A stretch of DNA of 64,000 nucleotides from an uncultured Candidatus Saccharibacteria bacterium. GTDB lineage: Bacteria > Patescibacteriota > Minisyncoccia > Phycocordibacterales > UBA9973. Shown here piece after piece: positions 2,205-34,308 of the stretch. The stretch is from assembly GCA_964484005.1 (NCBI GenBank), contig CAZADR010000003.1, forward strand, positions 24,910 through 88,909, given 5' to 3'. The translations under genes were made by a program, and so were the position numbers. Positions within the stretch are counted from its first letter, which is position 1; every line of letters starts with the position of its first letter. The notes below the pieces were generated by a model. That model saw only the letters and a list, made by a program, of their open reading frames with translations. It was not told the origin of the DNA and searched no databases.

Positions 2205-2642
2205 ATGAAATTTGGTCTGATTGAAATGGATCGAACGATTCCTCCGACCTACCCCCTTTGGAAGAAAAGGTTGCTCCATCCTGAGCTCGAGTGTGCAGGC
2301 CCTGACGAGTACTACCTTTCGTCCGTTGGACTCTGGCTTCTTGAAGAGCAGAAGCAGAGAGAAGTCAAGGGAAACGTTGTTTTCAATTTCCTGGAAAGTG
2401 CTTCTTTGTTTAAGTCCTGCCTGAACTTGCAGGACGGACTTGCAATCCAGGGAAAGGGCATCATGCCTTTCCGGGAGCTTTTTGGTGGCATGGCTGTATT
2501 CCTCTGGGCCTCCGCCGTGGAGAGTCAGAACGAGCAGGATAGTGTCCCATACCTCTACGAGCAATGGGGTAAAGTTGAAATCGCCTGGCATTGGCTCGAT
2601 GATACCTGGGACCGCTGGCGCCCCGCGCTCATCTTCCAATAA
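2205..2642 (+). CDS. Hypothetical protein, 145 aa, Trp-rich; compositionally foreign (GC around 50%)
   Basis: Strong RBS (aaAGGAGaaaac-ATG), its own promoter and terminator, and codon usage unlike neighbouring genes. No recognisable domain. Confidence 0.6.
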   Translation: MKFGLIEMDRTIPPTYPLWKKRLLHPELECAGPDEYYLSSVGLWLLEEQKQREVKGNVVFNFLESASLFKSCLNLQDGLAIQGKGIMPFRELFGGMAVFLWASAVESQNEQDSVPYLYEQWGKVEIAWHWLDDTWDRWRPALIFQ

Positions 2643-2659
2643 TCTCAGCAGGCATCACA

Positions 2660-2708
2660 ATAGCCCCGAACGCAAAACATCGCGTTTGGGGCTATTTTAT
2701 ATTTTAGA
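2660..2708 (+). terminator. Rho-independent terminator
   Basis: About 14-bp stem (atagccccgaacgc/gcgtttggggctat), loop aaaacat, followed by ttttatatttt. Confidence 0.7.
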
Positions 2709-4064
2709 AATTTTTTGACCCTCTGGTGTGTCTTTTACTTCGTAGCCAAGAGAATTTATTTCACCTCGAAGTTCATCTGATTTTTTGAAATCTTTGTCAT
2801 TGCGAGCTTGTTCTCTTTCTGTAACTATTTTTTTTATATTTTCTGGTATTTCAATTTCTTTTATATTTTCAAAGCCAAGTCCTAACACTTTATCAAAGTC
2901 TAAAATTGTAGCCTTTTTATCTCCATCTGACATATTTTCATCTTTCATTACATCCCAAAGGAGAGCCAATGCTCGAGGGGTGTCTAAGTCGTCTTCTAGG
3001 TATTCCTTGAACTTATTTTGGTATTCCTGGTGGACTTGCCCTAGTGCACTCCCTAGGCCTAAATAAAGGCCATAAAGGCGTTTTAAGGCTGTTTCAGCAC
3101 CTTCTAATGCTTCCCAGACAAAGTTTACTCTGGTGCGGTAATTTGCCATTAAAAGCCAAAATCTATAGGCTAGGGGATTTATTCCTTTTTCTATTAAGTC
3201 TCTCAAAGTAAAAAAATTATTGAAAGATTTTGCCATCTTTTTTTGGTCCACCAAGACCCACTCATTGTGCATCCAATATTTTACAAATTGTTTACCTGTC
3301 GCTCCTTCGGATTGAGCTATTTCATTTTCGTGATGGGGGAAGATATTGTCTACACCACCAGTGTGTAGGTCTATCTGTTCTCCCAAGTTTTTCATAGACA
3401 TAGCCGAGCATTCTATATGCCAGCCGGGTCGGCCTTTACCTAGACTGGTCTCCCAGAAGACATCTCCATCTTTTTCATCCCAAGATTTCCAAAGAGCAAA
3501 ATCTTGAGCGTTGTCTTTTTCGTATTCATCTGTTTTTATTCGGCCAGAAGCATTTTCTTTTTGTTCTTCTAGTACAAGGTGAGAAAGCTCGCCATAATTT
3601 TTAAATTTTTTTATATCAAAATACACACTGCCATCGGGGCTCTTGTAAGCAAGTTCTTTTTCTAAAAGTGTATTTATAATTTTTACCATCTCATCTACAT
3701 AGTCAGTGGCTTTGGTAAATTTTGTTGGTTCTAAGATGTTTAGAGTTTTAATATCTTTGAAAAATTCTGCAGTATAAAACTCTGTAAACTCCTTTAAGCT
3801 TTTGCCTTCTTTTTGAGAGTCACGAATAGTCTTGTCATCTATGTCGGTGATATTCATGATGTGTTTTACTTTATATCCGCTGTAAGTGAGCACACGCTTT
3901 AAAATATCTGCAAAAATATATGCTCTGTAATTTCCGATATGAGGATAATTGTAAACAGTGGGCCCACAAGAATAAAAAGTTACATGTGGAGGATTTATGG
4001 GGGTAAAAGTTTCTTTTGTTCTAGTTAAGGTGTTATAGACTTGCATTTTGTTTAAAGAATTCAT
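2697..4064 (-). CDS. cysS: Cysteine--tRNA ligase
   Basis: HIGN motif (HIGNYRAY) and KMAKS (KMSKS-like). Class I aaRS architecture. The true start may be the internal Met MQVYNTL at about 4046. Confidence 0.9.
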   Translation of the reverse strand: MNSLNKMQVYNTLTRTKETFTPINPPHVTFYSCGPTVYNYPHIGNYRAYIFADILKRVLTYSGYKVKHIMNITDIDDKTIRDSQKEGKSLKEFTEFYTAEFFKDIKTLNILEPTKFTKATDYVDEMVKIINTLLEKELAYKSPDGSVYFDIKKFKNYGELSHLVLEEQKENASGRIKTDEYEKDNAQDFALWKSWDEKDGDVFWETSLGKGRPGWHIECSAMSMKNLGEQIDLHTGGVDNIFPHHENEIAQSEGATGKQFVKYWMHNEWVLVDQKKMAKSFNNFFTLRDLIEKGINPLAYRFWLLMANYRTRVNFVWEALEGAETALKRLYGLYLGLGSALGQVHQEYQNKFKEYLEDDLDTPRALALLWDVMKDENMSDGDKKATILDFDKVLGLGFENIKEIEIPENIKKIVTEREQARNDKDFKKSDELRGEINSLGYEVKDTPEGQKISKI

Positions 4065-5058
4065 TTCGGTATATTGAAATTAGGGTATAGAGCAAGCTGA
4101 CAGTGAGTGGGCCAATCAAGATACCAACAGGGCCCATAAGGGAAATACCTCCGAGTACTGAGAATAGAATAATGATAGAAGGCAGGTGTATCTTTTTGCC
4201 TACAATGAGTGGGCTTAAAAAATTATCTATCATTCCTACAGCAATTACAGACCAAATTATAAGACCGATAGAAGCAGCAGTACTGCCTGTCGCAAAAAGG
4301 AAGATTACAGCAGGGATTGAAACCAAGGCAGTTCCAATCATTGGAAGCAGAGAAGACACAGCAGCTACCACACCCCACAATGCGGGATTTGGTACATTAA
4401 AAATGGAGAGACCGACTCCCATGACTATGCCCTGTACAAGGGCGACAAACATGTATCCTTTTATTACAGCATTTACAGAAGAGGCCAATCTGGAAATAAT
4501 TCTCTCATCTTCTTTGTCTTGTAGGGGAGAGATTAAAACTATGGCTTTTTTCCATCTCGCTCCATCTTTTAAAAGATAAAAGATTATTAGAAGCATTAGT
4601 AAGAATGAAAAGAAGGCGGATACAGTGGAGCTAAAAATATTTGCGATATTCTTTGATAAGTAGGAGATAAATTCTGTGGTTCTTTGGTTTATATCAAAGT
4701 TGATAATTTCTGGTAGGAGATTATTGATTTTATTTTCAATAGAATATAGAAAAGGCTCTGCACTACCTTCGCTTACTACTGCTCTGTATACATCTTGGCT
4801 TTGATTAAAAACAATTGCCCCGATACCTAAAAGTGGTCCGCACAAGAGTAAAATAAAGAGAAGGAGTGTCACTAGGGCGGAGAGCCATTCGGGTAATTTT
4901 CTATTATTTAGCCAAGCATATACAGGATGGAGCACTATAGCAAAAGATATTCCTAAAATAAGAACAATCCAGAAAGGTTGGAAAATAAAAAAAGTAAAAA
5001 TTAAAGTAGCCAATAATAGCCCAAAGAAAAAATATTTCTCTATAATTTTTGGTTGCAT
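4033..5058 (-). CDS. AI-2E family transporter (UPF0118/PerM-like permease)
   Basis: 341 aa, 8 TM topology with the characteristic layout of this family. Confidence 0.7.
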   Translation of the reverse strand: MQPKIIEKYFFFGLLLATLIFTFFIFQPFWIVLILGISFAIVLHPVYAWLNNRKLPEWLSALVTLLLFILLLCGPLLGIGAIVFNQSQDVYRAVVSEGSAEPFLYSIENKINNLLPEIINFDINQRTTEFISYLSKNIANIFSSTVSAFFSFLLMLLIIFYLLKDGARWKKAIVLISPLQDKEDERIISRLASSVNAVIKGYMFVALVQGIVMGVGLSIFNVPNPALWGVVAAVSSLLPMIGTALVSIPAVIFLFATGSTAASIGLIIWSVIAVGMIDNFLSPLIVGKKIHLPSIIILFSVLGGISLMGPVGILIGPLTVSLLYTLISIYRNEFFKQNASL

Positions 5059-5152
5059 ATGGGCATAATTATAGCAGAATTAATGCGGGAGACCAAGTCT
5101 TTTTGGTCCTAGGGTTGCTTTTTTGAGAAATATCATATAATATAAGCCAAGT

Positions 5153-5488
5153 ATGACTAAAACGAAGAAAGATGAATTTGCAGTAATATTTACAGGCGGA
5201 AAGCAATACAAAGTCTCCGAGGGAGGCCTTGTTTCTATTGAGAAAATAAAGGGTGAATACAAAAAAGGGGACAAGTTGTCTTTTGATAAAGTTCTCTTGG
5301 TAGATGACGGCAAAGACACCACAATCGGTACACCTTATATAAAAGGAGCAAAAGTGGATGCTGAAATAGTAGAAATTGGCCGTGCTCGAAAAATATTAGT
5401 TGTAAAATACAAACAAAAATCCCGTTACCTCCGCCGAAACGGCCACCGCCAACCTTTCTTCAAAGTAAAAATAACTTCTATAAAATAA
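5153..5488 (+). CDS. rplU: 50S ribosomal protein L21
   Basis: 111 aa with typical L21 sequence (FAVIFTGGKQYKVSEG...VLLVDDG). Confidence 0.9.
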   Translation: MTKTKKDEFAVIFTGGKQYKVSEGGLVSIEKIKGEYKKGDKLSFDKVLLVDDGKDTTIGTPYIKGAKVDAEIVEIGRARKILVVKYKQKSRYLRRNGHRQPFFKVKITSIK

Positions 5489-5489
5489 A

Positions 5490-5526
5490 TTAAAAAGCCC
5501 CGCAATAAGCACGGGGCTTTTTGTTG
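5490..5526. terminator. Bidirectional rho-independent terminator between rplU and the 5551-5784 gene
   Basis: Hairpin aaagccccg-caataag-cacggggcttt with T-runs on both sides. Confidence 0.7.
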
Positions 5527-5550
5527 CGGGGCGAGATCGATGATCCGGCT

Positions 5551-5784
5551 CTATCTTGGCACGATGTTTCTTGCCCAGAGCTTGCCGTTGTACTTGCACT
5601 TGCTCGGCACGAAGAATACGTCACGGGTCGAGCAAGTTGCGTTGTAGTCGAAGCACATGTCATACAACACACTGGCCTCGTCGTCCTTGACTCGGTAGGT
5701 ATTGCCGTCGTTGGCAATGATTTCCATTACGAACTTGCTTGCGGTGAACTTGCGAAGAACCAGGTCCCCAGTTAACTGACACAT
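5551..5784 (-). CDS. Hypothetical small protein, 77 aa, 4 Cys; compositionally foreign (higher GC)
   Basis: A perfect AGGAGG RBS lies 7 nt upstream of the ATG. The promoter is consensus TTGACA/TATAAT. A terminator follows downstream. No recognisable domain. Confidence 0.6.
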   Translation of the reverse strand: MCQLTGDLVLRKFTASKFVMEIIANDGNTYRVKDDEASVLYDMCFDYNATCSTRDVFFVPSKCKYNGKLWARNIVPR

Positions 5785-5793
5785 TTAAAGACC

Positions 5794-5835
5794 CCTCCTA
5801 ATACACATTATACACCTTTAAGAATATTTTGTCAA
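5794..5835 (-). promoter_or_regulatory. Consensus sigma70 promoter (TTGACA, 16-17 nt spacer, TATAAT) plus AGGAGG RBS of the 5551-5784 gene
   Basis: On the minus strand: TTGACAaaatattctaaaggtgTATAATgtgtattAGGAGGggtctttaaATG. An 8-4-8 palindrome aaatagac-tatt-gtctattt lies just upstream at 5833-5852. Confidence 0.6.
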
Positions 5836-5840
5836 ATAGA

Positions 5841-6452
5841 CTATTGTCTATTTTTGAGAGCGTTTTTGAGAGTGTCGTTGTCTGAATATTCGAGTTCGGT
5901 GCCAGTGGAGAGGCCTTTGCCTAGAGAGGACACTTTTATATTTAATTTTTCTGCAGTGTTTGCGATTTGTTCTCGGACATAAGAATCTGTGTGGTCGCCT
6001 TGGGGACTAATAGAAAAAGCTAAGATAATCTCTTTTAAATCCGCACTCTTTTCAATCCTTTGTTTTAATTCTTCAATACGTACTCGGCTCTTGGTATTTT
6101 TCTCTACTATTGGTACTAGTCCACCCAAAATAAAATATTTTCCATGATAGACTCCGCTCTTGTTTATACTTTCTAAATCAGAATCTTTTTCTACTATCAA
6201 CAAAAGGGAAGAGTCGGTATTTGGACTGCCACAAATCTCACAAATATCTTTTTTGGTTTTACTACCGAGGAAAAATTTATAGCACTCTTTGCATTGAGAA
6301 ACTTCCTTTTTTAATTCTAAGACTAGCTTGGATAAATTGTTGGCATATTCTCCATTTCTAAAAATTAAAAAATAAACAAAACGCTTGGCTTGCCTTTCAC
6401 CAATACCAGGGAATTCTTTAAAAACTTCAGTTAATTTTTCGATAATGTCCAT
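5841..6452 (-). CDS. recR: Recombination protein RecR
   Basis: C4 zinc finger (CKECYKF...CEICGSP) followed by a Toprim domain. 203 aa. Confidence 0.9.
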   Translation of the reverse strand: MDIIEKLTEVFKEFPGIGERQAKRFVYFLIFRNGEYANNLSKLVLELKKEVSQCKECYKFFLGSKTKKDICEICGSPNTDSSLLLIVEKDSDLESINKSGVYHGKYFILGGLVPIVEKNTKSRVRIEELKQRIEKSADLKEIILAFSISPQGDHTDSYVREQIANTAEKLNIKVSSLGKGLSTGTELEYSDNDTLKNALKNRQ

Positions 6453-6459
6453 GTGTTAT

Positions 6460-6571
6460 GAATTCTAAAGTAGCTTCTCTCGAAAAGCAATCTATCTGGC
6501 GCTGTTGCGCCAGCGAACTGCTCGCGCCGTCGCGCTGTGCAAGGCTTTTCTCAAGAACTACTCTAGAATTC
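6460..6571. repeat. GC-rich structured element of about 110 bp, bounded by 14-bp terminal inverted repeats (gaattctaaagtag / ctactctagaattc)
   Basis: Outer inverted repeat matches 13/14. Inner inverted repeat (cttctctcgaaaagc / gcttttctcaagaa) matches 11/14. The GC-rich core has two hairpins (ctggcgc-tgtt-gcgccag and cagcg...cgctg). It overlaps the dnaB stop codon. Confidence 0.45.
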
Positions 6572-7957
6572 GTCAAGATCACCACCAATTTTTGATGGAG
6601 CAAATTCGCTGATGTTGCTCTTTTCAAGGTTCAAGAAGGTGGTGGTTTTTTCGTCGAAGTAGAGCTCTACTTTTCCGGTTGGACCATTGCGGTGTTTTTC
6701 AACTAAAATTTCAGCAATGTTTGTCTTTTCAGATTCATCTTTACCTTTATCTTCGCGGTGGATAAACATTACGACATCGGCGTCTTGTTCGATAGAACCA
6801 GAGTCTCGAAGGTCTGAAAGGCGAGGCTTGCCACCACGAGATTCCACAGCACGAGAAAGCTGAGAAAGAGCCAACACAGGCACATCTAGTTCTTTGGCGA
6901 GACTCTTTAGAGATCTTGAAATTTCAGTGACTTGGTTTACCATAGAATCATAATTTTTTGAAGTTGTCATGAGCTGTAAGTAGTCGACGACGATAAGGTC
7001 TAGTCCTTTTTCGGCTTTTATTCTACGAGACAAAGCTTTCATTCTTACTATAGAGTTTCCTGGAGTATCATCGATAAAGATTTGTGCCTTAGCAAGCTTG
7101 TCTAAAGAATCTCGAAGTTGTGAAAATTCTCTGTCTGAAGACAAGCGTCCGGTGCGCAAGTTCCAAGCATTGACTCTGGATTCTGCAGAGAGCATGCGGT
7201 CTACGAGTTGTTGAGAAGACATTTCTAGCGAGAATATTAAAATGGATTTTTCGTGTATTACTCCTGCCATACGGGCTACATCGAGGGCCAGAGTGGTTTT
7301 ACCCATCGAAGGTCTAGCAGCCAAAATAATAAGATCTGATTTTTGGAAACCTGAAAGCATTGTGTCTAGTTCTTTAAATCCACTAGGAAGACCGCGAAGC
7401 ATTCCTTTATTCTCGTGCAGTTTTTCCATTCGCTCATAAGCTTCAGGTAAGGCGTCTTTTAAATTTACATATTTTTGATTTTTAGGAGAGGATACAACGT
7501 GAAAGATTTTTTTCTCTGCCAAGTCTAAGATATCATCCATGTGGTCATCTCCTTCTTCAAAAGCAAGCTCGGAGACATAATCGGCTGCTTCAATCAAACT
7601 TCGGAGGACATATTTTTTTTGGACAATATCGGCGTAGTGTTTTACGTTTGTAGAAGAGGGAACGACATTTACAATCTCGGCGAGATATTGATTGCCACCA
7701 ATAGCTTCCAGTAATTTTTGTTCACTTAGTTTTGTAGAAAGGGAGAGCATATCTATCGGTTCATTCTTTACTGAAAGGTCGAGCATGGCACTGAAAATCA
7801 TTTTGTGTTTTTCAACATAGAAAGATTCAGCAGTCACCATATCCTCGACTTCATGCATCGCTTCTTTTCGGAGCATAATAGAACCAAGAACTGCTTGTTC
7901 GGATGGTATGCTTTGTGGAGGAATTCGAAGATTATTATTTTTTGCTATTTTTACCAT
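6563..7957 (-). CDS. dnaB: Replicative DNA helicase DnaB
   Basis: DnaB N-terminal domain. Walker A ARPSMGKTTLAL. RecA-like C-terminal domain. 464 aa. Confidence 0.92.
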   Translation of the reverse strand: MVKIAKNNNLRIPPQSIPSEQAVLGSIMLRKEAMHEVEDMVTAESFYVEKHKMIFSAMLDLSVKNEPIDMLSLSTKLSEQKLLEAIGGNQYLAEIVNVVPSSTNVKHYADIVQKKYVLRSLIEAADYVSELAFEEGDDHMDDILDLAEKKIFHVVSSPKNQKYVNLKDALPEAYERMEKLHENKGMLRGLPSGFKELDTMLSGFQKSDLIILAARPSMGKTTLALDVARMAGVIHEKSILIFSLEMSSQQLVDRMLSAESRVNAWNLRTGRLSSDREFSQLRDSLDKLAKAQIFIDDTPGNSIVRMKALSRRIKAEKGLDLIVVDYLQLMTTSKNYDSMVNQVTEISRSLKSLAKELDVPVLALSQLSRAVESRGGKPRLSDLRDSGSIEQDADVVMFIHREDKGKDESEKTNIAEILVEKHRNGPTGKVELYFDEKTTTFLNLEKSNISEFAPSKIGGDLDEF

Positions 7958-19273: not shown

Positions 19274-20371
19274 ATGAAAGGAAAAAAAGTAGATAAATTT
19301 TTTTTAATAGTAGTAGGTATATTACTAGCACTTGGAGTTGCTATGTTTATCTCTGCGTCTCTAGGGGTTTTGGATAGAAATCAGGAAACTTTCCGTGGAG
19401 TACTATTTAGTCAGCTGATTTTGGGCCTTGGTTTGGGGCTCTTCGGAATGTTTATTTCTTCTAAGATTGATTACAAACTTTGGCGAAAATTTTCTTTTAT
19501 TTTATTTATTGGTTCAATTCTACTCACCGCTGCTGTTTTTATTCCTTCTTTGGGTTGGAGCCATGGTGGAGCCGAAAGATGGTTACAGATTGGAACTTTT
19601 ACATTTCAACCTGTTGAATTTTTAAAATTTGGTTTTGTAATTTATTTTGCAGCTTGGCTCTCTTGGGCCAAACAGAGAGTACAAGATTTTAAATTTGGAA
19701 TTTTACCTTTTGCTATAATGCTTGGAGTTATTGCTCTTATTTTATTAAACCAACCAGACACAAAAAGTTTTATTTTAATCACGGTTACTGGAATATTGAT
19801 GCTTTTTATATCAGGAGCTCCTATTAAATATATTTTTTGGATTGGATTAGGTTTAACAATTTTATTTGGAGTTTTACTTTATTTCAAGCCATATTTACAA
19901 GAACGAGTAAAAACTTTTATTAATCCAGCTCAGGACTCTCAAGGTTCTTCTTATCAGATTCAGCAATCTTTTATTGCTCTTGGATCAGGAGGTATATTTG
20001 GTAGGGGTTTTGGGCAAAGTGTTCAGAAGTTTAGCTATCTTCCAGAACCACAGGGGGATTCTATCTTTGCTGTTTTGGGAGAAGAAATTGGTTTTGTCGG
20101 GGCCTTTATTACTATTTTTCTTTACTTACTTTTTATTCTGCGTGGATTTCATATAGCCAATCGGTCTCCAGATTATTTTAGTAGACTTTTAGTCTATGGA
20201 ATTGTTATACTTATTACAGTGCAATCTTTTATGCACATGGCCTCAGTCTCGGGAGTTTTTCCTTTGACGGGTGTGCCACTTGTTTTTATGAGTCAGGGCG
20301 GAACTTCGCTTATGGTTTATCTTGTGGCAGTTGGAATCGTTCTAAATATATCAAGATTTAGTAAAAATTAA
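19274..20371 (+). CDS. ftsW: SEDS-family peptidoglycan glycosyltransferase FtsW/RodA
   Basis: 365 aa polytopic SEDS protein sitting between mraY and murG. Confidence 0.85.
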   Translation: MKGKKVDKFFLIVVGILLALGVAMFISASLGVLDRNQETFRGVLFSQLILGLGLGLFGMFISSKIDYKLWRKFSFILFIGSILLTAAVFIPSLGWSHGGAERWLQIGTFTFQPVEFLKFGFVIYFAAWLSWAKQRVQDFKFGILPFAIMLGVIALILLNQPDTKSFILITVTGILMLFISGAPIKYIFWIGLGLTILFGVLLYFKPYLQERVKTFINPAQDSQGSSYQIQQSFIALGSGGIFGRGFGQSVQKFSYLPEPQGDSIFAVLGEEIGFVGAFITIFLYLLFILRGFHIANRSPDYFSRLLVYGIVILITVQSFMHMASVSGVFPLTGVPLVFMSQGGTSLMVYLVAVGIVLNISRFSKN

Positions 20372-27577: not shown

Positions 27578-29284
27578 TTATTCAAAATATTCAGGTGTAT
27601 TTAAAGACATCCAATCCAACAAACCTCCCATTATAGAAGAAGCTCCCACGCTAGTGGTATTGGGGCCTGCTTCCATCATTATGGTAAAAGCGTATTTAGG
27701 ATTTTCATATGGGAAGAATCCTACTATCCAAGAATTTACTTTATTTTTTGCGACTCCGATTTGAGCAGTACCAGTTTTTGCTGCAACTTCTACATAGGGT
27801 ACATTTAGGGCTACTGCTGTGCCATAAGTCACAGCTTGCCTCATTCCGTCATGCACGATGTCGTAATGCTCCTTTTTAAAATCGAGTGTAGACACAATGT
27901 TTTCTTTTTCGATATCGCTCAACACAAAATGAGGAGTTAATAATTTCCCATTGTTTGCTAGGGCACCCACCGCTCGAACCATCTCTATCGGAGTCACCTG
28001 AAAGCCGTATTGTCCTATCGATGTATGGTAAGTATTTCCTACTCGCCAAGGATCTCCATTAAAATTTTTAAGCTTCCATTCTGGGCTAGGTATTACCCCT
28101 TGTTTTTCGTCTGGTAAGTCAACTCCAGTTTTTTCATCAAAACCAAAAAGCTTTGAATATTTTTCGATATTAGCTATTCCTAAACCTTTTTGACCTTCAA
28201 ATCCCCCGCCGATTTCATAAAAATAGATGTCAGAAGATACGGCGATAGCTTCCATCATGTTGGTCCAGCCGTTCACTCTCCAGTCTTTAAAGACAGTTTT
28301 TTGGTCTGGAAAATAAGGATTTGGAATTGAGATAGACCCAGTGGAGAGAATCTCGGTGTTGGGGTCTATGATACCCTCTGCTAAGGCCGCTAAAGCAAAA
28401 AAAGGTTTTACAATGGAACCAGGTGTGTATAATCCAGAGATGTCTCTATCTAGAAAGAACTTTCTTTTATCTGTGAGATAAGTTTTTATTTTATCTGAAT
28501 CTTTTCCAAAAGAAAGAGTTTCAGAATTATATTCAGGAAAACTTGTGGAAGTTAAAATTTCTCCATTTTGTACGTTCATAATTATTCCTGCTCCCCCGGT
28601 AAATGATTGTTTTTCTGATAGATCTTTTATGAGTGTGTACAATTCTTTTTGAATGCGCGAATCTATAGTGGTGACTAAGTCGCTGCCTTCTTTTGGTGTG
28701 TTTACAATATTTTCTGAATAGACTCTACCTAGGGCGTCTGTCTCTATTATTTTTGAGCCATTTTCTCCCTTAAGTTTTTCATTGTATTGTTTTTCTAGTC
28801 CATCTTTTCCTATAAAATCTCCTTGCCAAAAGATACCCTTACTGTCTTTAGTCGGATAGCTTACATAACCCAAAAGATGTGAAAACCCTGGTGAAATATA
28901 TGCTCGGGTGGGAACAGAAGTAGAATCTTTGTTTTCTTCAGTCTTTTTGTTCCAAGCCAGCTCTACTTTATTGCGGTCATAGATTATCCCCCTGTCGCTG
29001 AATAAGATGTCTTTTTCGAGCGTGTTATTTTGACTCCTTTGGAAATAGGCTTCACCTTTTTCTATTTGAAGATAAAAAAGACGAGTTCCAAAGACTCCAG
29101 TAAAAAATAAAAATAAAATGCCTAAAAGGATAATAGTTTTCTTTGGTATTGGTTTTTCAATACGACCTTCAAATTGTTGTCGGTCAAAATTTTGCAAATT
29201 TGTAGAATCTAAAAAAATTTCGTCGGGTTCTACAAAAGAGCTACCATTTCTAATTTTATTTTTTTTAATAATCCTGTTTATCAT
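27578..29284 (-). CDS. mrdA: Penicillin-binding protein 2 / peptidoglycan D,D-transpeptidase
   Basis: N-terminal TM helix, PBP dimerisation domain, and transpeptidase motifs S-I-V-K, SSD and KTGT. Confidence 0.85.
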   Translation of the reverse strand: MINRIIKKNKIRNGSSFVEPDEIFLDSTNLQNFDRQQFEGRIEKPIPKKTIILLGILFLFFTGVFGTRLFYLQIEKGEAYFQRSQNNTLEKDILFSDRGIIYDRNKVELAWNKKTEENKDSTSVPTRAYISPGFSHLLGYVSYPTKDSKGIFWQGDFIGKDGLEKQYNEKLKGENGSKIIETDALGRVYSENIVNTPKEGSDLVTTIDSRIQKELYTLIKDLSEKQSFTGGAGIIMNVQNGEILTSTSFPEYNSETLSFGKDSDKIKTYLTDKRKFFLDRDISGLYTPGSIVKPFFALAALAEGIIDPNTEILSTGSISIPNPYFPDQKTVFKDWRVNGWTNMMEAIAVSSDIYFYEIGGGFEGQKGLGIANIEKYSKLFGFDEKTGVDLPDEKQGVIPSPEWKLKNFNGDPWRVGNTYHTSIGQYGFQVTPIEMVRAVGALANNGKLLTPHFVLSDIEKENIVSTLDFKKEHYDIVHDGMRQAVTYGTAVALNVPYVEVAAKTGTAQIGVAKNKVNSWIVGFFPYENPKYAFTIMMEAGPNTTSVGASSIMGGLLDWMSLNTPEYFE

Positions 29285-29285
29285 T

Positions 29286-29549
29286 TTATTTATAAAACTT
29301 CAATTTCTTTTTAAGAATTTCTATCAATATCAATAATACTAGAGACAAGAAAAAAGAAACAAAAAGCATATCAAAAAATCTTGCTTCTTTTGTGCCATAG
29401 AGTAAGTCTGACAAAAAGAACAATAAAACTGCTTCAAAGTAGGTAGAAAAATAAAACATACAAACTATAGCAAGTATGACAGAAACCCAAAAGGGCATAA
29501 AAAATATAGAAAATGCTAAGACAATAAAGGCAAAAATTCTCTGAGGCAT
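29286..29549 (-). CDS. Small hydrophobic protein, possibly MreD-like
   Basis: 87 aa with 3 TM helices, immediately upstream of PBP2 (the position MreD occupies in mreBCD-mrdAB operons). Confidence 0.3.
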   Translation of the reverse strand: MPQRIFAFIVLAFSIFFMPFWVSVILAIVCMFYFSTYFEAVLLFFLSDLLYGTKEARFFDMLFVSFFLSLVLLILIEILKKKLKFYK

Positions 29550-29588
29550 ACCCTCATATTACACGCTTAATTTTAAAATACAAATCCT

Positions 29589-30659
29589 TTATTCGCCCAC
29601 ATCATATTTTTCTAAATATGATGTTAAGAGTCTATTCACTTTCAAAAAAGTTGCTCTTTTGGGAAATTCTTTTAGCTGCCTAGCTCCAATATAAGTAGAG
29701 GTGCTTCTAAGCGATCCCATTAGGTCTTGGATGAAATCATGGATGTCTCCCTTGTGAGGAATGAGAGTGTATCTGCCTTCGCTCGCTCTGTGAATATCTT
29801 TTTTACCATAAAATTCTTTCATGGCTTTGTTTGAAGAAGAGCCAAAATATTCTTTGAATTTTTTACCATCTTTTAAGACGGTTTCACCTCCGCTTTGTTC
29901 AAAACCAGAAAATAACGAACCACACATATTAAAATCTGCTCCGCCACAAAATGCCTTTGCTATGTCTGAAGTATATTGTTGACCACCATCTGCAATTATT
30001 CTTCCGACCCCTCTTTCATTAGCGACTCCGTGAGCAGAATCTGCACATTCTATGACGGCTGAGAGTTGAGGATATCCTACACCCGTCATCTTTCTGGTGG
30101 TGCAGGCGGAGCCGGGACCAATCCCTATCTTTACTATGTCGGCTCCAGCTAAAATAATCTCTTCAGTCATTTCGTTGGTGACAACATTTCCTGCAATTAT
30201 TATATGTTTTGGGCAAATTTTTCTAACCTCTTTTATTACTTCTAGAAAAATTTGTAGATAACCATTTGGCACATCCAAACAAATAAAAGAGAATTTTTCC
30301 AATAAACCCTTTTTCTTCATCAATTTTAATTGCTGGATATCTTTTTCCCTAATACCTAATGTGTAGCAAATATAATCTGGGTTTTTGAAACTTTTTAAAA
30401 ATTTTTCGTAATCTTTTATAGTGTAGTATTTATGAAAGGCTGTCAGCATCTTGTATTTTGAAAGTTCTTTTGCCATTTCAAATGTTCCACAAGTTGCCAT
30501 ATTGGAGGCAAAGATTGGGAGACCTGTCCATTTTTTGGGAGAATGATAAAAAGTAAAAGTTCTTTCAAGAAGAACATCTTTTCTTGATTCCAAGGTACTT
30601 CTCTTTGGTCTGAGTAGTACGTCTTGATAATCCAATTTTACATCATCTAATATTCTCAT
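29589..30659 (-). CDS. guaC: GMP reductase
   Basis: N-terminus MRILDDVKLDYQDVLLRPKRSTLESR is almost collinear with E. coli GuaC. IMPDH/GMPR TIM barrel with GIGPGSACTTR. Confidence 0.85.
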   Translation of the reverse strand: MRILDDVKLDYQDVLLRPKRSTLESRKDVLLERTFTFYHSPKKWTGLPIFASNMATCGTFEMAKELSKYKMLTAFHKYYTIKDYEKFLKSFKNPDYICYTLGIREKDIQQLKLMKKKGLLEKFSFICLDVPNGYLQIFLEVIKEVRKICPKHIIIAGNVVTNEMTEEIILAGADIVKIGIGPGSACTTRKMTGVGYPQLSAVIECADSAHGVANERGVGRIIADGGQQYTSDIAKAFCGGADFNMCGSLFSGFEQSGGETVLKDGKKFKEYFGSSSNKAMKEFYGKKDIHRASEGRYTLIPHKGDIHDFIQDLMGSLRSTSTYIGARQLKEFPKRATFLKVNRLLTSYLEKYDVGE

Positions 30660-31079
30660 TTATTTTTTTAGCCAGATTTTGTCTAGAGACCAAGAGTCTA
30701 TTCCATTTAAGAAAATTGAAAACATTGCCATTGTGAGTCCAAAATCACGAACTCCTACACCTGTATAGCCTACTACAGTCGTGATATGAAGCAAGTGTAG
30801 AGCTAGAACAAGTGATACTACTCTTGTAAAAAGGCCCAACAAGAGACAAGAGGCAAAAATAACCTCAAATACTCCATTTATATAAACTAAAGTGACAGCA
30901 GACATACCAGACATAGAAATAATCCAATCTGGAATCAAGCTCGTCCATGCGTTGGTATTTAAAAGCTGTTGTGAACCAAACCATAAAAACACTAAAGATA
31001 AACCAATACGAACAACTACAGGTGCAAAAGACTTCATTTTTTCTGCCCAATTTTTATTTTGATTATATATTTCTTCCAT
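30660..31079 (-). CDS. DoxX-family membrane protein
   Basis: 139 aa with 4 TM helices and DoxX-like N-terminal VVVRIGLSLVFLWFG. Confidence 0.65.
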   Translation of the reverse strand: MEEIYNQNKNWAEKMKSFAPVVVRIGLSLVFLWFGSQQLLNTNAWTSLIPDWIISMSGMSAVTLVYINGVFEVIFASCLLLGLFTRVVSLVLALHLLHITTVVGYTGVGVRDFGLTMAMFSIFLNGIDSWSLDKIWLKK

Positions 31080-31080
31080 T

Positions 31081-31560
31081 TTATTTTTTATAAGTTCCTA
31101 TTAAAAAAGTTTCTAATTTAGATTCTTGTTTTTCTTTACCACCATGTTGTCCTTCAAAAGCGAGGGTTCCATCCTTACCACAAATTTTAAGAATATTTTC
31201 TTCTCCGCCTGGGTGCATATTTATCCACGGGGTTAAATCATATACATTATCTTTTACTATGGTCCAGCAGCTTGCTGCACCACCATGAGCTGTTACTTCT
31301 GCCAAAGTGTAAGCTTTGGTGATTGCGGGTGTTTCTGTATTATTTTGAATCTGTATATTTGAAATATTTTCTTCTACAGGTTTTATGTCCTCCACAATTT
31401 CTGGAACAGTTTCAACTGAGGTTGGTTTGTCTTTAGTATATTTTAACCCAAATACGATTGCTATTATTAATACAAACAAGGAAACTAAAAAAATGATTGT
31501 TGATTTCATAGGTTTGTATTTTAACATTTTCACAAAAAAATGTGAATTTTTATTTTTCAA
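31081..31560 (-). CDS. Membrane-anchored cytochrome b5-like heme-binding domain protein
   Basis: N-terminal TM helix. C-terminal cyt-b5 fold with HPGG and a second His (FEGQHGG). Confidence 0.7.
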   Translation of the reverse strand: MKNKNSHFFVKMLKYKPMKSTIIFLVSLFVLIIAIVFGLKYTKDKPTSVETVPEIVEDIKPVEENISNIQIQNNTETPAITKAYTLAEVTAHGGAASCWTIVKDNVYDLTPWINMHPGGEENILKICGKDGTLAFEGQHGGKEKQESKLETFLIGTYKK

Positions 31561-32167
31561 CCAAAACTGCGGTCACCACTAGGCGTTTGTCGTGTGTTTT
31601 GTAGTCTTGAATCCAAGTTCCTGTGCAAGTAATAAGTTTTATTAATTTTTGATCATTACCAGTGAAGACCTCACTTAATCTTGAGTCGAAATTAAAAACA
31701 TCTGTTTTTGTTACTGAAAAATGTAAAAGCTGACCGTCTTCTCTCTTTATATAAATATCGTCTCCTTCTTGGAGTTCTTCTAGTCTGCTAAAAACAGCCG
31801 GAAGAGCGATACCGTTGTTTACATGGCCTGCTATTATGGCACTACCACTATTTCCCGGTATTACTCCGTATTTATACCATCCTACATCTGTAAAGTTATT
31901 TGGGGCTGCCATATTGCCTTTTTTAGAGATACCAACTTTTTGAATTTCCGTGTCTATTTCAAGTTTTGGAATAGAAATATATGCTGGATATTCTGGCGTT
32001 GTGGATGTTTTGGTACTGTCGGTATTTATGACACTATCTTGTATATTTTCTATGGCCTGTGGATCTAGTGGTATTTCGTCATTTGGGGCATAGAAAAAAG
32101 TCCTAATTAAAACTAGACAAAAAACAAAAATTATAAAGATACTTGTTAATAGTTTTATTGTGCGCAT
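31550..32167 (-). CDS. Sortase-family transpeptidase
   Basis: N-terminal TM anchor, catalytic His (IIAGHVN), TLxTC-type motif (LIKLITCTG) and conserved Arg (RLVVTA). Confidence 0.85.
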   Translation of the reverse strand: MRTIKLLTSIFIIFVFCLVLIRTFFYAPNDEIPLDPQAIENIQDSVINTDSTKTSTTPEYPAYISIPKLEIDTEIQKVGISKKGNMAAPNNFTDVGWYKYGVIPGNSGSAIIAGHVNNGIALPAVFSRLEELQEGDDIYIKREDGQLLHFSVTKTDVFNFDSRLSEVFTGNDQKLIKLITCTGTWIQDYKTHDKRLVVTAVLVEK

Positions 32168-32201
32168 TATAATTTTTAGGGTTTTTTAAAGTAAGAACAA
32201 A

Positions 32202-32232
32202 GAACGAGTATCATTTTTTTTGATACTCGTTC
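32202..32232 (-). terminator. Perfect 12-bp hairpin between the sortase-substrate gene and the sortase gene
   Basis: gaacgagtatca-ttttttt-tgatactcgttc, followed by a U-rich tract on the minus strand. Confidence 0.5.
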
Positions 32233-32246
32233 CTGTCCTTTTCAGT

Positions 32247-32741
32247 TTAAGATTTACGAGATAAACGGGTAAGATGCAAGAAACCAAAACTTGCAGCAAT
32301 TCCCAAGCCTATAAGCAGTAAGATGTTTTGAAGAGTATTTCCTCCAAAACCTGTGACAGGAAAGCCAACGGATGATGTTGTTCCTCCGCCAGCAGGCCCA
32401 AATATGGTTCCATTACATGCCCAACCATTTATCGTGCTGTACCCAAGTGTGGATGAACACCCAGCTAGATAAGAAAATAGAGCGACAGAGCCTCCACTAC
32501 ACGGTGCCCCATTTGCTGTACTATATCCCAATGCGGATGAAGAACATCCGGACAAAAATCCCATATAGGCAGCCGAACTGCCATTACAAGGATTTCCAGT
32601 CGTCACGCTGTATCCGAGGCCGGATGCACAACCTGAAGGAAATGAAGCAGTCTGAGCATTGGCTTTAGATACTCCAACGAATCCAACTCCAGCAACAATA
32701 ATTGCTAAAGAAAGAAAAAGATAAAAAGTTTTTGTTTTCAT
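32247..32741 (-). CDS. Predicted sortase substrate: secreted 4x Cys-repeat protein with C-terminal FPVTG sorting signal
   Basis: Signal peptide. Four repeats of about 27 aa (GC.S.LGYS..NG.PC.G), giving 8 Cys. C-terminal FPVTG + hydrophobic segment + RLSRKS tail. Confidence 0.7.
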   Translation of the reverse strand: MKTKTFYLFLSLAIIVAGVGFVGVSKANAQTASFPSGCASGLGYSVTTGNPCNGSSAAYMGFLSGCSSSALGYSTANGAPCSGGSVALFSYLAGCSSTLGYSTINGWACNGTIFGPAGGGTTSSVGFPVTGFGGNTLQNILLLIGLGIAASFGFLHLTRLSRKS

Positions 32742-32861
32742 AAAATTAATAATCTTTCTGTTACAGAGTTGATAATATTATTAACTAATAAATACGACCT
32801 TTATATCTATGTAATTATAGACCTAAAGTGTCAATTTAGCACTAGTAGCTAGGAAAAACCC

Positions 32862-33305
32862 TTATTTTTCAACAAAAGAGAGATCTTTGTCGTCGAGCTG
32901 TTTTGCCATTTCTTCTCTGGTATAGCCTTGGATATTTTTTGTATTGTAGTGGTATATATTTCCACCGTTATAAGCCAAAGTTACGCAATCACTGCCGTTT
33001 TTGCATGAAGCATGAATTACAAGATGAATATCTTTTGGAGAGATGCCTTGCTCTAGCCACTCTTTTCTAAGAGTTTCTATTAGGGCAACTGTGTCTTCTG
33101 TGCTGTTTAGATATCCTCCTAATTTATTTCTTTCATCTTCTTGTCTTAATTTTTCAGCGAGTTCTTCTGCTTCTGGATTTGCTAAATCAATTGAAACTAG
33201 CTCTACTCCACTTTCAGCGGCTACTTCTTCTTCAGAAGGAAGCTCTGAAGGCATTCCTAGGTCTTTTAACTTCCCTTCCCATTCATTCATTGATTCCATG
33301 TTCAT
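32862..33305 (-). CDS. Hypothetical acidic protein
   Basis: 147 aa. No recognisable family. Confidence 0.4.
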   Translation of the reverse strand: MNMESMNEWEGKLKDLGMPSELPSEEEVAAESGVELVSIDLANPEAEELAEKLRQEDERNKLGGYLNSTEDTVALIETLRKEWLEQGISPKDIHLVIHASCKNGSDCVTLAYNGGNIYHYNTKNIQGYTREEMAKQLDDKDLSFVEK

Positions 33306-33334
33306 ATTTTTATTATAGCACTGTTAATATGCCC

Positions 33335-33994
33335 CTAGTCACTGTTTATTAAAAATTTAAAGCTCTGTATTATTTTTTCAAGTTCATTTTGAATTTTGAG
33401 TTTATTAAACTCTGTGATTCCTTGGTCTCCCGAATAGTTTTCAATATTTGTGGAATGAATAGTATATTCAATAGCATAACAATCCCCATCCACTATACCC
33501 TTGTAACTCGTGGAGTCATAGAAATTTCCCACAGCGCCTTCACTAAATGTAAATTTTTTGAATTGAAAATTGTCTACAGTCACAAAACCATTGTCGCTAT
33601 AGCTATCTAGTGTTTTGTTTAAGCAATTATTTATGGCATTTGGTTTAGTAGATCTTCCTACGGTGAGAAAGGCATTAGAGAAATTTGTATTTGGCATATA
33701 TTCTTTTGGAACATTTATTCTTGTAAGGACAATGCCGAGCTCTTTTGCATTCAAACTCCATTCTATCGTGGGGATTTGTGCTCCCTCTGTATTTGTAAAA
33801 GATGAGTTGTAATTAAAAGAAAAAACATTATTGGAGTCGGTAAAATTTTTGTCTTCAGGTAAAGAGCTAGAGACAGCCTCTGTCTCTGTCGATAAAATTT
33901 TATCAACTAATTTGGGCACCCAGATTTTTTGAGTAAATAGTAAAGCTATTCCGATAATTATTAAAATCAATAAAAATATTCTTAATGTTTTCAT
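33335..33994 (-). CDS. Hypothetical secreted/membrane-anchored protein
   Basis: 219 aa, N-terminal TM helix or signal anchor. No recognisable family. Confidence 0.45.
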   Translation of the reverse strand: MKTLRIFLLILIIIGIALLFTQKIWVPKLVDKILSTETEAVSSSLPEDKNFTDSNNVFSFNYNSSFTNTEGAQIPTIEWSLNAKELGIVLTRINVPKEYMPNTNFSNAFLTVGRSTKPNAINNCLNKTLDSYSDNGFVTVDNFQFKKFTFSEGAVGNFYDSTSYKGIVDGDCYAIEYTIHSTNIENYSGDQGITEFNKLKIQNELEKIIQSFKFLINSD

Positions 33995-34029
33995 ATTTTA
34001 TATTATAGCAAAAATTAGAACTTTACTCC

Positions 34030-34308
34030 TTACTTTTTAAGTAAGGCAAGTTTGGTTTTAGTGCCACCTTTTCCAGAATATCCACCAATGGAGCCATCAC
34101 TCCTTATTACTCTATGACAAGGTATTTTTATTGTTACAGGATTAGCTCCGACAGCATTTGCTACGGCCCTGATTGCTTTTGGCTTATTTATTTTTTTCGC
34201 GAGTTCTTTATAGGTAATAGTTTTTCCTTTTGGAATTTGAAGCAAAGACTTCCAAACCTTTTTCTGAAAGTCTGTGCCTTTTAATTTATTAATATTTATA
34301 TTCGGCAT
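34030..34308 (-). CDS. ogt: Methylated-DNA--protein-cysteine methyltransferase (DNA-binding/active-site domain only)
   Basis: Active-site PCHRVI motif. 92 aa, so a C-terminal MGMT domain alone. Confidence 0.8.
   Translation of the reverse strand: MPNININKLKGTDFQKKVWKSLLQIPKGKTITYKELAKKINKPKAIRAVANAVGANPVTIKIPCHRVIRSDGSIGGYSGKGGTKTKLALLKK

Follow-up and report, generated by a model that had tools for sequence, protein, structure and literature searches.

A predicted two-gene surface cassette of a class F-like sortase and a Cys-loop protein in a Paceibacteria/Nomurabacteria-type bacterium

Sortases have been reported from more than half of the CPR genomes (PMC6744442). The locus described here raises the question of which protein such a sortase might anchor, whether an FPVTG motif in the place of LPXTG reflects a specificity of its own, and whether the cytochrome b5 and DoxX genes that follow the sortase gene belong to the same functional unit. 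The window, that is the whole stretch of 64,000 nucleotides analysed, comes from a CPR bacterium of the Paceibacteria/Nomurabacteria type with genes for peptidoglycan synthesis: MraY, FtsW, MurG, Ddl, Alr and PBP2 are encoded within it, as are subunits of an F-type ATP synthase. The features of the locus are as follows.

32247..32741, minus strand: sortase substrate gene; 164 aa with signal peptide, three Cys-loop repeats and cell-wall sorting signal
32200..32234, minus strand: intrinsic-terminator-like hairpin between the substrate and sortase genes, from folding energy and a terminator scan
31550..32167, minus strand: sortase gene; 205 aa, membrane-anchored, class F-like (Pfam Sortase)
31081..31509, minus strand: cytochrome b5 gene; 142 aa with N-terminal membrane anchor and extracytoplasmic cytochrome b5 domain (Pfam Cyt-b5)
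30660..31079, minus strand: DoxX gene; 139 aa, polytopic membrane protein (Pfam DoxX)
29589..30659, minus strand: GMP reductase gene, given as context; last tightly packed gene of the row (NCBIfam NF003470)

The substrate-sortase pair

All open reading frames that an initial annotation had described at this locus were recovered at the same coordinates in the ORF list. The genes from the sortase onwards follow one another closely, with 40 nt between the sortase and cytochrome b5 genes (ATG start at 31509), 1 nt between the cytochrome b5 and DoxX genes and 0 nt between DoxX and GMP reductase, the latter identified by a match of 448 bits against a cut-off of 397. Such close packing would fit a functional operon running from the sortase gene to that for GMP reductase, with cytochrome b5 and DoxX as members. 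Rfam and tRNA scans returned just three tRNAs and no match around the sortase cassette, and in a scan for consensus promoters the sites were no commoner than in shuffled sequence, none of them being convincing upstream of the substrate gene.

The sortase matches the Pfam profile PF04203 over its full length (positions 1-125 of 125; 77.7 bits, cut-off 26.6, E = 8.4e-22), and the catalytic triad noted earlier could be assigned to His115 (AGH), Cys181 (LITCTG) and Arg195 (KRLVV), which are kept in 22 paired orthologues. Among the NCBIfam sortase classes the class F model NF033748 gave the top score (118.5 bits, under its cut-off of 166), followed by class C with 39.9 bits. Homologues of the enzyme carry the NCBI name class F sortase, and its sequence matches in the PDB were weak and to class C/D sortases. 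Because the class F score is by far the best yet lies under the curated cut-off, we refer to the enzyme as class F-like. The prototype of this class is the housekeeping sortase of Cutibacterium/Propionibacterium acnes (Di Girolamo et al., 2019, as cited in PMC8225981). Like class F sortases, the window sortase has an N-terminal membrane anchor, the His-Cys-Arg triad and a predicted recognition of LPXTG-type signals; unlike them, it scores below the class threshold, belongs to a CPR host and not to an actinobacterium, and appears to tolerate Phe at P4. Moreover, the prototype is a general housekeeping enzyme, whereas the window sortase is, within the window data, paired with one dedicated small substrate.

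The claim that the sortase is accompanied by an adjacent cognate substrate was supported by comparison with related genomes. Since the substrate gene lies directly upstream of the sortase gene in 14 of 15 related species genomes, we regard the two as a dedicated two-gene cassette. The same order was found at the P0023 locus and in L062, with a sortase identity of only 45% in the latter. In one species (L006/L011) no sortase gene adjoins that of the substrate, and at the P0134 locus a sortase homologue stands without a same-strand upstream partner. The sortase most likely anchors the neighbouring small cysteine-loop protein to the cell wall.

The hairpin between the two genes had been described as a perfect 12-bp terminator; the 12-bp core is present, and the full stem is longer, with about 19 pairs. 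Its folding energy is -25.3 kcal/mol (z = -6.5 against shuffles), the terminator scan lists it too, and it has the features of an intrinsic (Rho-independent) terminator, namely a GC-rich stem-loop located 3' of the stop codon and followed by a U tract (T-rich tail in the DNA). A GC-rich hairpin with a U tract, unrelated in sequence, occupies the matching position in 9 of 15 related loci. The element is thus a strong candidate for an intrinsic terminator, and its position after the substrate gene would allow the structural protein to be made in excess over the sortase.

The FPVTG sorting signal

Three features could be distinguished within the substrate.

32655..32741, minus strand: signal peptide, residues 1-29; MKTK, hydrophobic core and ANA|Q, read from the sequence
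32379..32636, minus strand: three Cys-loop repeats, residues 36-121; Cys pairs 38/52, 66/81 and 95/109
32250..32363, minus strand: cell-wall sorting signal, residues 127-164; FPVTG, hydrophobic segment and RLSRKS tail

The C-terminus reads as originally reported, with G-FPVTG, a stretch of about 25 hydrophobic residues (FGGNTLQNILLLIGLGIAASFGFLHLT) and the basic tail RLSRKS at the extreme end of the protein, as in LPXTG-type signals. Among 55 sequences P128, T130 and G131 are invariant, and the Pro and Gly in front of the pentapeptide show a conservation of at least 90%. It might be argued that this segment stays uncleaved as a plain membrane anchor and that the sortase next to it serves other proteins of the genome; the NCBIfam LPXTG-anchor model gave no match to the substrate at E <= 0.1, and one genome has the substrate without an adjacent sortase. 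The strict conservation of the pentapeptide would be hard to explain for such an anchor, and the adjacency of the sortase in 14 of 15 genomes likewise argues against it, so that we consider this explanation very improbable.

The initial annotation had treated FPVTG as a distinct, non-canonical class of signal. Orthologues have either F or L at position 127. A signal could be recognised in 62 small family members, of which 17 are F-type, 42 L-type and 2 I/V-type at the first residue; the F-type count becomes 18 when P0023, which was mis-scored by the pattern, is included. The exchange occurs between close relatives: the substrates P0006 (FPTTG) and P0008 (LPTTG) are 75% identical with near-identical tails, and the sortases paired with them are 72% identical with near-identical catalytic domains. 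A sortase co-evolved with its substrate to be specific for Phe, and orthogonal to LPXTG sortases, could account for the clustering of F-type signals in the clade nearest the window protein (P0001-P0007), and the wild-type SrtA of Staphylococcus aureus indeed took FPxTG only after engineering, which yielded SrtA-F1-20 (PMC8248031). However, the swap between P0006 and P0008 leaves the catalytic domains almost unchanged, no column of the sortase alignment discriminates the 10 F-type from the 12 L-type pairs, and F-type signals reappear in separate branches (L010, L020, P0011). An altered specificity is therefore improbable in our judgement, and the distinct class was not upheld. Because the sortase alignment columns do not track the change between F and L, FPVTG is read as a permissive lineage variant of LPXTG, apparently tolerated by this sortase clade and with no separate specificity.

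Natural FPXTG signals are already on record, in the form of one FPXTG protein of Streptococcus agalactiae NEM316 (PMC8225981). In both this signal and the sequence recognised by SrtA-F1-20, Phe replaces Leu as in the window signal (PMC8225981, PMC8248031). The S. agalactiae protein is a single exception, whereas in the CPR family F-type signals make up 17-18 of 62 and alternate with L.

The initial annotation had also proposed a search of the genome for other proteins with [FL]PxTG C-termini. Our scan for sorting signals covered the window and about 1500 ORFs from all fetched related loci, and within this set the substrate was the sole ORF with such a signal; the sortase may have further substrates in the rest of the genome. 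An FPLTG within the polytopic FtsW (19274-20371) and matches in non-gene ORFs were discarded as false positives.

The Cys-loop repeat protein

The signal peptide of the substrate was assigned by eye, and its A-x-A site is well preserved, with A27 and A29 at least 90% conserved in an alignment of homologues (A1). The repeats that follow share the motif G-C-x-S-x(1,2)-L-G-Y-S-x3-(N/T)-G-x-x-C-(N/S)-G. Four repeats of 27 aa with two Cys each had been counted; the Cys pairs were found as described, but the repeats number three, with six Cys in total, and their length is 28-29 aa. All six Cys are invariant in 55 family members. The close homologues (n = 29, about 160 aa) all come from Nomurabacteria/Paceibacteria, and a profile search retrieved 421 representatives. 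Neither the repeat nor the substrate had a match in Pfam, NCBIfam or the PDB; in the PDB the sequence profile search (alignment A4) gave nothing meaningful, with a best E-value of 0.93. The AlphaFold2 model built from 29 sequences reached a pLDDT of 64 and that built from 55 sequences 76.9, the latter with short hairpins only and no Ig-like fold.

The mature domain (residues 30-130) has zero charged residues and zero Lys, and Lys is also absent from it in 21 of 24 orthologues. This composition bears on the idea that the substrate is a pilin-like subunit polymerised by the sortase into a fibre in the manner of class C enzymes, as the position of a dedicated sortase beside a small structural gene and the presence of class C pilus sortases among the PDB sequence matches could suggest. 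Without Lys the mature domain offers no pilin-motif nucleophile, the model lacks an Ig-like fold, and the NCBIfam class C score is far below that of class F (39.9 against 118.5 bits). We have therefore rejected the pilin reading, which we regard as extremely improbable.

A conserved Cys pair is found in some sortase-anchored coat proteins of actinomycetes. The long chaplins and other SrtE-dependent hydrophobic proteins of these bacteria resemble the substrate in being small, of low charge and sortase-anchored (PMC13251363), the anchoring of the substrate being predicted. No sequence similarity was detected between the two groups; furthermore, the actinomycete coat proteins are hydrophobic, whereas the CPR repeat has a high content of Gly, Ser and Thr, and the coat sortase belongs to class E, whereas the window sortase is F-like.

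The Cys-loop repeat is also found in large proteins that bear PG_binding_1, and many of these have a classical PG_binding_1 sequence at the C-terminus. The possibility that such matches are an artefact of the Cys repeat was rejected, since the two lie apart in P0154, where PG_binding_1 matches at residues 52-106 and the repeat is best matched at 216-299. As to the part of a host-cell adhesin that the initial annotation had considered for the substrate, the occurrence of both in the same proteins only suggests a role in envelope-related or glycan-related binding. The repeat is an undescribed envelope module that, as far as its sequence context allows a prediction, would probably have a ligand, for which a glycan is the most likely candidate.

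The cytochrome b5 and DoxX genes and a model of the cassette

The identity of the two downstream genes is well supported by Pfam (PF00173, 65.6 bits, cut-off 23.7, E 4e-18 for the cytochrome b5 domain; PF07681, 38.2 bits, cut-off 23.6, E 2.2e-09 for DoxX). In 32 homologues of the cytochrome b5 protein the predicted axial ligands are the invariant His of HPGG and the His of QHGG, which is at least 90% conserved; a pair of cysteines (Cys81/Cys110) is invariant in the family. The protein had been called secreted, which holds in a loose sense only, since it has an N-terminal membrane anchor and no evident cleavage site. An overlap of its gene with the sortase gene exists solely if the alternative TTG start at 31560 is used; the ATG at 31509, which is found in public gene calls (142 aa) and agrees with homologues of 139-143 aa, leaves the 40-nt gap. 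The overlap proposed for DoxX was not found, its gene being separated from the cytochrome b5 gene by 1 nt and abutting that for GMP reductase.

These genes had been taken as part of a redox or disulfide-handling module tied to surface display. If they acted as one unit with the substrate and the sortase, the heme domain and DoxX would oxidise, or serve as the electron sink for, the three substrate disulfides before anchoring. Several findings would fit such an integrated unit. The spacing on one strand is very tight (40, 1 and 0 nt), and the order substrate-sortase-cytochrome b5-DoxX recurs in L005/L016 with a substrate of 52% identity. In addition, the cytochrome b5 family repeatedly adjoins thiol/disulfide machinery, with VKOR, thioredoxin-like (Pfam Redoxin) or DoxX genes directly beside it in about 8 of about 19 dereplicated lineages. 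A precedent is known from Actinomyces and Corynebacterium, where the disulfide-forming machine MdbA/VKOR is linked to sortase-dependent assembly (cited in PMC6744442); the shared concept, as outlined there, is that exported Cys-bearing sortase substrates need oxidative folding, and the relatives of the window cytochrome b5 that adjoin VKOR and Redoxin genes add to the likeness. On the other hand, the window has DoxX and not VKOR, the surroundings of the cassette showed no DsbA-like gene, and the linkage of redox genes to the sortase is not conserved. The cytochrome b5 gene adjoins a sortase gene in only 2 of 15 species, and in 4 of 15 a DoxX gene is nearby; the close relative L022 has the block cytochrome b5-DoxX-GMP reductase-PBP2 and lacks the substrate-sortase cassette; and no sortase was found near about 33 other cytochrome b5 loci (L022-L056). 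In L005, L007, L009 and L022 the gene that directly follows DoxX is the one for IMPDH or GMP reductase, and this constant neighbourhood suggests inherited synteny. The DoxX protein itself lacks a CxxC motif and contains just one Cys. In Mycobacterium tuberculosis a DoxX of the same Pfam family, likewise a membrane protein and only distantly related, is described as part of a membrane oxidoreductase complex acting in thiol redox homeostasis (Nambi et al., 2015, via PMC7907618); its partners there are SodA and SseA, whereas at the window locus DoxX accompanies a cytochrome b5 domain protein.

Taken together, an envelope redox module of cytochrome b5 and DoxX is plausible, but its conserved connection to the sortase was not borne out, and we hold the integrated unit to be unlikely. 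Because the cytochrome b5 gene is rarely beside a sortase, the pair persists without the cassette, and the cytochrome b5 family elsewhere adjoins VKOR, Redoxin or DoxX genes, the pair is, judged by its neighbourhoods, a separate extracytoplasmic redox module placed here by local synteny, which may be co-transcribed with the sortase. A more far-reaching proposal, which we put forward with marked reserve as unlikely, is that in quinone-poor CPR bacteria a membrane-anchored extracytoplasmic cytochrome b5 with DoxX or VKOR, together with a thioredoxin-like (Pfam Redoxin) protein, would form a heme electron outlet for the making of disulfide bonds; in this lineage it would be co-transcribed with the sortase and oxidise a triple-disulfide substrate before anchoring, and the repeat would serve these episymbionts as a novel glycan-binding module for attachment.

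The reading that we favour, and consider likely, is that of a two-gene surface cassette in which the class F-like sortase would anchor the Cys-loop protein to the wall, the cytochrome b5 and DoxX genes standing apart. The substrate would be made as a small and abundant pre-protein, leave the cell through Sec and have its signal peptide removed after ANA. A disulfide would close each of the three short loops (38-52, 66-81 and 95-109), and the C-terminal helix and basic tail would hold the protein in the membrane. The sortase would then cut FPVTG between Thr130 and Gly131 and transfer the uncharged, Lys-free domain of about 101 residues onto a peptidoglycan precursor, which would result in covalent display on the wall.

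CPR sortases and FPXTG variants are already known, and the cassette overturns no current knowledge. In CPR bacteria, VKOR or DoxX was seen as the partner of cytochrome b5 domains, and this pairing is a testable lead on how electrons from disulfide formation might be disposed of without quinone synthesis. A sortase clade that would naturally accept either Phe or Leu as the first motif residue is of possible interest for the engineering of sortase ligation. The unannotated Cys-loop repeat, shared by small sortase substrates and large peptidoglycan-binding proteins, deserves a family definition and a structure. For the Paceibacteria/Nomurabacteria, whose surface biology is barely known, the cassette provides a concrete, conserved and probably abundant predicted wall-anchored protein.

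Conservation of the substrate-sortase cassette

The secreted substrate and its predicted sortase are encoded in a compact minus-strand gene row that spans 29.6-32.8 kb of the window.

Features of the gene row, in the order of transcription
32247-32741, minus strand: substrate, open reading frame for a 164-aa protein
between the 32247-32741 and 31550-32167 genes: 79-nt spacer with a strong hairpin
31550-32167, minus strand: sortase, 205 aa (Pfam Sortase, 77.7 bits)
31081-31509, minus strand: cytochrome b5-domain protein (Pfam Cyt-b5, 65.6 bits), ATG start as in public gene calls
30660-31079, minus strand: DoxX (Pfam DoxX, 38.2 bits), beginning 1 nt past the end of the cytochrome b5 gene
29589-30659, minus strand: GMP reductase (Pfam IMPDH/GMP reductase), abutting DoxX

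We were able to confirm the signal peptide of the substrate (MKTK, a hydrophobic core and ANA/Q), its C-terminal sorting signal (G-FPVTG, a hydrophobic segment and RLSRKS), the catalytic triad of the sortase (His115, Cys181 and Arg195) and the hairpin terminator after the substrate gene (32200-32234, -25.3 kcal/mol, z = -6.5, with a T-rich tract behind it). The four 27-aa repeats of the initial annotation proved to be three Cys-pair repeats with a period of 28-29 aa (Cys pairs 38/52, 66/81 and 95/109). The mature part (residues 30-130) consists to 64% of Gly, Ser, Thr, Ala and Asn and contains no charged residues, Lys included; a pilin-type polymer of the substrate is ruled out by the lack of Lys. 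The sortase is nearest to class F by NCBIfam, with 118.5 bits, which is below the curated cut-off of 166 (next class, 39.9).

Metagenome contigs from ENA and Logan carry identical copies of the sortase in an unchanged gene order. Homologues bear the labels Candidatus Nomurabacteria, Paceibacterota or Minisyncoccia, and MraY, FtsW, MurG, Ddl, Alr, PBP2, VanY, MreB and F-ATPase subunits are encoded elsewhere in the window; the host is therefore a peptidoglycan-making bacterium of the candidate phyla radiation (CPR).

One genome per GTDB species was scanned, and relatives of the small substrate protein were encoded at 15 loci. A sortase ortholog follows immediately on the same strand in 14 of them, the exception being L006/L011. 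The same arrangement was found for the homologue P0023 on a JGI contig and at the locus L062, though the sortase there is only 45% identical; the upstream gene encodes a 165-aa Cys-loop protein, again with three repeats, that ends in LPRTG. No same-strand partner of the sortase homologue was found at the P0134 locus. The conserved unit is the substrate together with the sortase. The spacer of nine of the 15 loci contains a GC-rich hairpin and U tract, unrelated in sequence from locus to locus, and the genes abut or overlap in the remainder; from this pattern we infer that the structural gene product would be made in excess over the sortase. No credible sorting signal was detected among the other ORFs of the window or the approximately 1500 ORFs of all fetched loci. 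An FPLTG near the C-terminus of FtsW/RodA (19274-20371), followed by hydrophobic segments, is a false positive of simple sorting-signal patterns.

Several neighboring genes deserve mention. Upstream of the cassette lie two genes without family assignment, one for a very acidic 147-aa protein (32862-33305), with a homologue in the related locus L022, and one for a 219-aa protein that has a helix at its N-terminus (33335-33994), whose 327-aa homologue in L017 is encoded just 3' of the sortase gene, on the other strand. A polytopic membrane protein of 361-364 aa (MPLIEPIRNFYSRYERPISS...), absent from the window, is encoded directly 3' of the sortase in L007:7230-8315, L013:2278-3372 and L014:7061-8155. 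Just upstream of the substrate gene, L007:4647-5908 and L009:4668-5898 hold, as read by eye, an ECF-type sigma factor gene and a second gene, possibly for an anti-sigma factor. About 4.6 kb upstream in L005:166-1409, a sigma-70 r2/r4 gene precedes a DUF5667 gene, both with Pfam support, and similar sigma-like genes, read by eye and without Pfam support, are on the opposite strand in L017:3108-4935 and L021:4735-5244. Such genes may place the cassette under envelope-stress regulation in those genomes; the window contains no pair of the sigma/anti-sigma type.

The sorting motif and the Cys-loop repeat family

A profile search with the Cys-pair (Cys-loop) repeat against 1.84 billion representatives returned 421 proteins at E <= 1e-3, which fall into two architectures. 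Small members (up to 260 aa, 3-5 repeats) carry a recognizable [LF]PxTG signal in 62 of 93 cases, whereas 80 of 82 large members have no sorting signal and 67 of the 82 contain PG_binding_1, often together with Ig-like, PKD or Kre9/KNH domains. One large protein, from Ca. Paceibacterota, bears the annotation peptidoglycan-binding protein. The invariant Gly-Tyr-Ser within the loop, predicted to be disulfide-closed, and the co-occurring PG_binding_1 suggest that the repeat might bind glycan. Seven large proteins (P0218, P0242, P0273 and four others) have Pfam matches, with E down to 1e-10, to the N-terminal heparin-binding domain of amyloid A4 (APP_N), a domain that is unexpected in bacterial envelope proteins; three of the seven have a C-terminal sequence of the type YCKKW.PNT...W...CVQ.

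The FPVTG motif had been proposed as a non-canonical class of sorting signal. Across the aligned family the pentapeptide keeps P, T and G without exception, and its first residue is either F or L; the 62 small members with a recognizable signal comprise 42 L-type, 17 F-type (18 if P0023, mis-scored by the pattern, is included) and 2 I/V-type signals. Indeed, F and L interchange between close orthologs: P0006 (FPTTG) and P0008 (LPTTG) share 75% identity and have nearly the same tail, and their partner sortases are 72% identical overall, differing mostly in the N-terminal linker region. Moreover, no alignment column separates the partners of F-type (n=10) from those of L-type (n=12) signals among 22 paired sortases. 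FPVTG is thus better described, as far as sequence comparison goes, as a benign F-for-L variant than as a new class. A natural FPXTG signal is on record for one protein of S. agalactiae NEM316 (PMC8225981), acceptance of FPxTG has been engineered into S. aureus SrtA (PMC8248031), and over half of the CPR genomes are known to have sortases (PMC6744442). In P0003, which is 82% identical to the substrate, the motif reads FPVTD, perhaps as a genuine variant or else through an error of sequencing or assembly.

The cytochrome b5-DoxX pair

The gene overlaps described in the initial annotation did not hold: that of the sortase and cytochrome b5 genes requires an unlikely TTG start at 31560 (giving 11 nt), and DoxX overlaps no gene. 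The cytochrome b5 protein, taken to be secreted, is membrane-anchored instead. It adjoins a sortase gene only in the window organism and L005/L016, and DoxX lies near the cassette in four species, each time with IMPDH or GMP reductase as the next gene downstream. In L022, where the cytochrome b5 protein is 78% identical to that of the window, the row (2592-7940) runs MGMT-like, lipoprotein, 147-aa-gene homologue, cytochrome b5, DoxX, GMP reductase, small membrane protein and PBP2, and matches the window (27578-34308) without the substrate-sortase cassette, apparently a clean case of presence versus absence of two genes. A Lipoprotein_15 gene occupies there the place of the 219-aa gene. A 356-aa GMP reductase is encoded just after the DoxX/sortase position in L022 and in the window (29589-30659; NF003470 score above the cut-off), and the same syntenic position in relatives holds a 488-500-aa homologue (L005:8017-9483, L007:8772-10262, L008:2973-4475 and L009:8105-9604), to which, in the case of L005, precomputed Pfam matches assign IMPDH and CBS domains.

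Members of the cytochrome b5 family are about 155 aa long and N-terminally anchored, with an invariant HPGG His and a nearly invariant second His. Equally invariant is a Cys pair (SCW...ICGKDGT; residues Cys81 and Cys110 in the window protein of 142 aa), which is not known from classical cytochrome b5 and which is consistent with a disulfide of structural role in a domain outside the cytoplasm. The family was sampled at 38 further loci (L022-L059), 35 of them with a cytochrome b5 ORF. Among lineages dereplicated at 80% identity, VKOR lies immediately 3' of cytochrome b5 in four (often with a Pfam Redoxin gene next and sometimes with DoxX before), DoxX does so in four, and neither in about ten. 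No sortase was found near cytochrome b5 in these loci. The cytochrome b5-VKOR order, often continued by Redoxin, occurs in Minisyncoccia-type contigs (L023-L037, L042, L043 and L047; for example L023:3544-5938 and L024:4001-5966), and L023, L025 and L030 have the order DoxX-cytochrome b5-VKOR-Redoxin. This row may represent a heme-linked module for disulfide formation in bacteria that presumably cannot synthesize quinones.

Of the proposed redox or disulfide module linked to surface display, the extracytoplasmic redox module is therefore supported by its VKOR, Redoxin and DoxX neighbors, but its coupling to display is not, since the further cytochrome b5 loci lack a sortase. Judged by gene neighborhoods, cytochrome b5 and DoxX would form a redox pair independent of the adjoining cassette, that is, a separable module. 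A functional connection in this lineage is possible, because DoxX has been implicated in thiol homeostasis of M. tuberculosis (Nambi et al., 2015, as cited in PMC7907618) and a VKOR-based disulfide machine of Actinomyces has been linked to sortase-dependent assembly (work cited in PMC6744442).

The cassette is a real and well-conserved sortase-substrate pair of an already known kind in a CPR host, and the novelty, which is modest, lies in the unannotated Cys-loop repeat family and in the association of cytochrome b5 with VKOR or DoxX.
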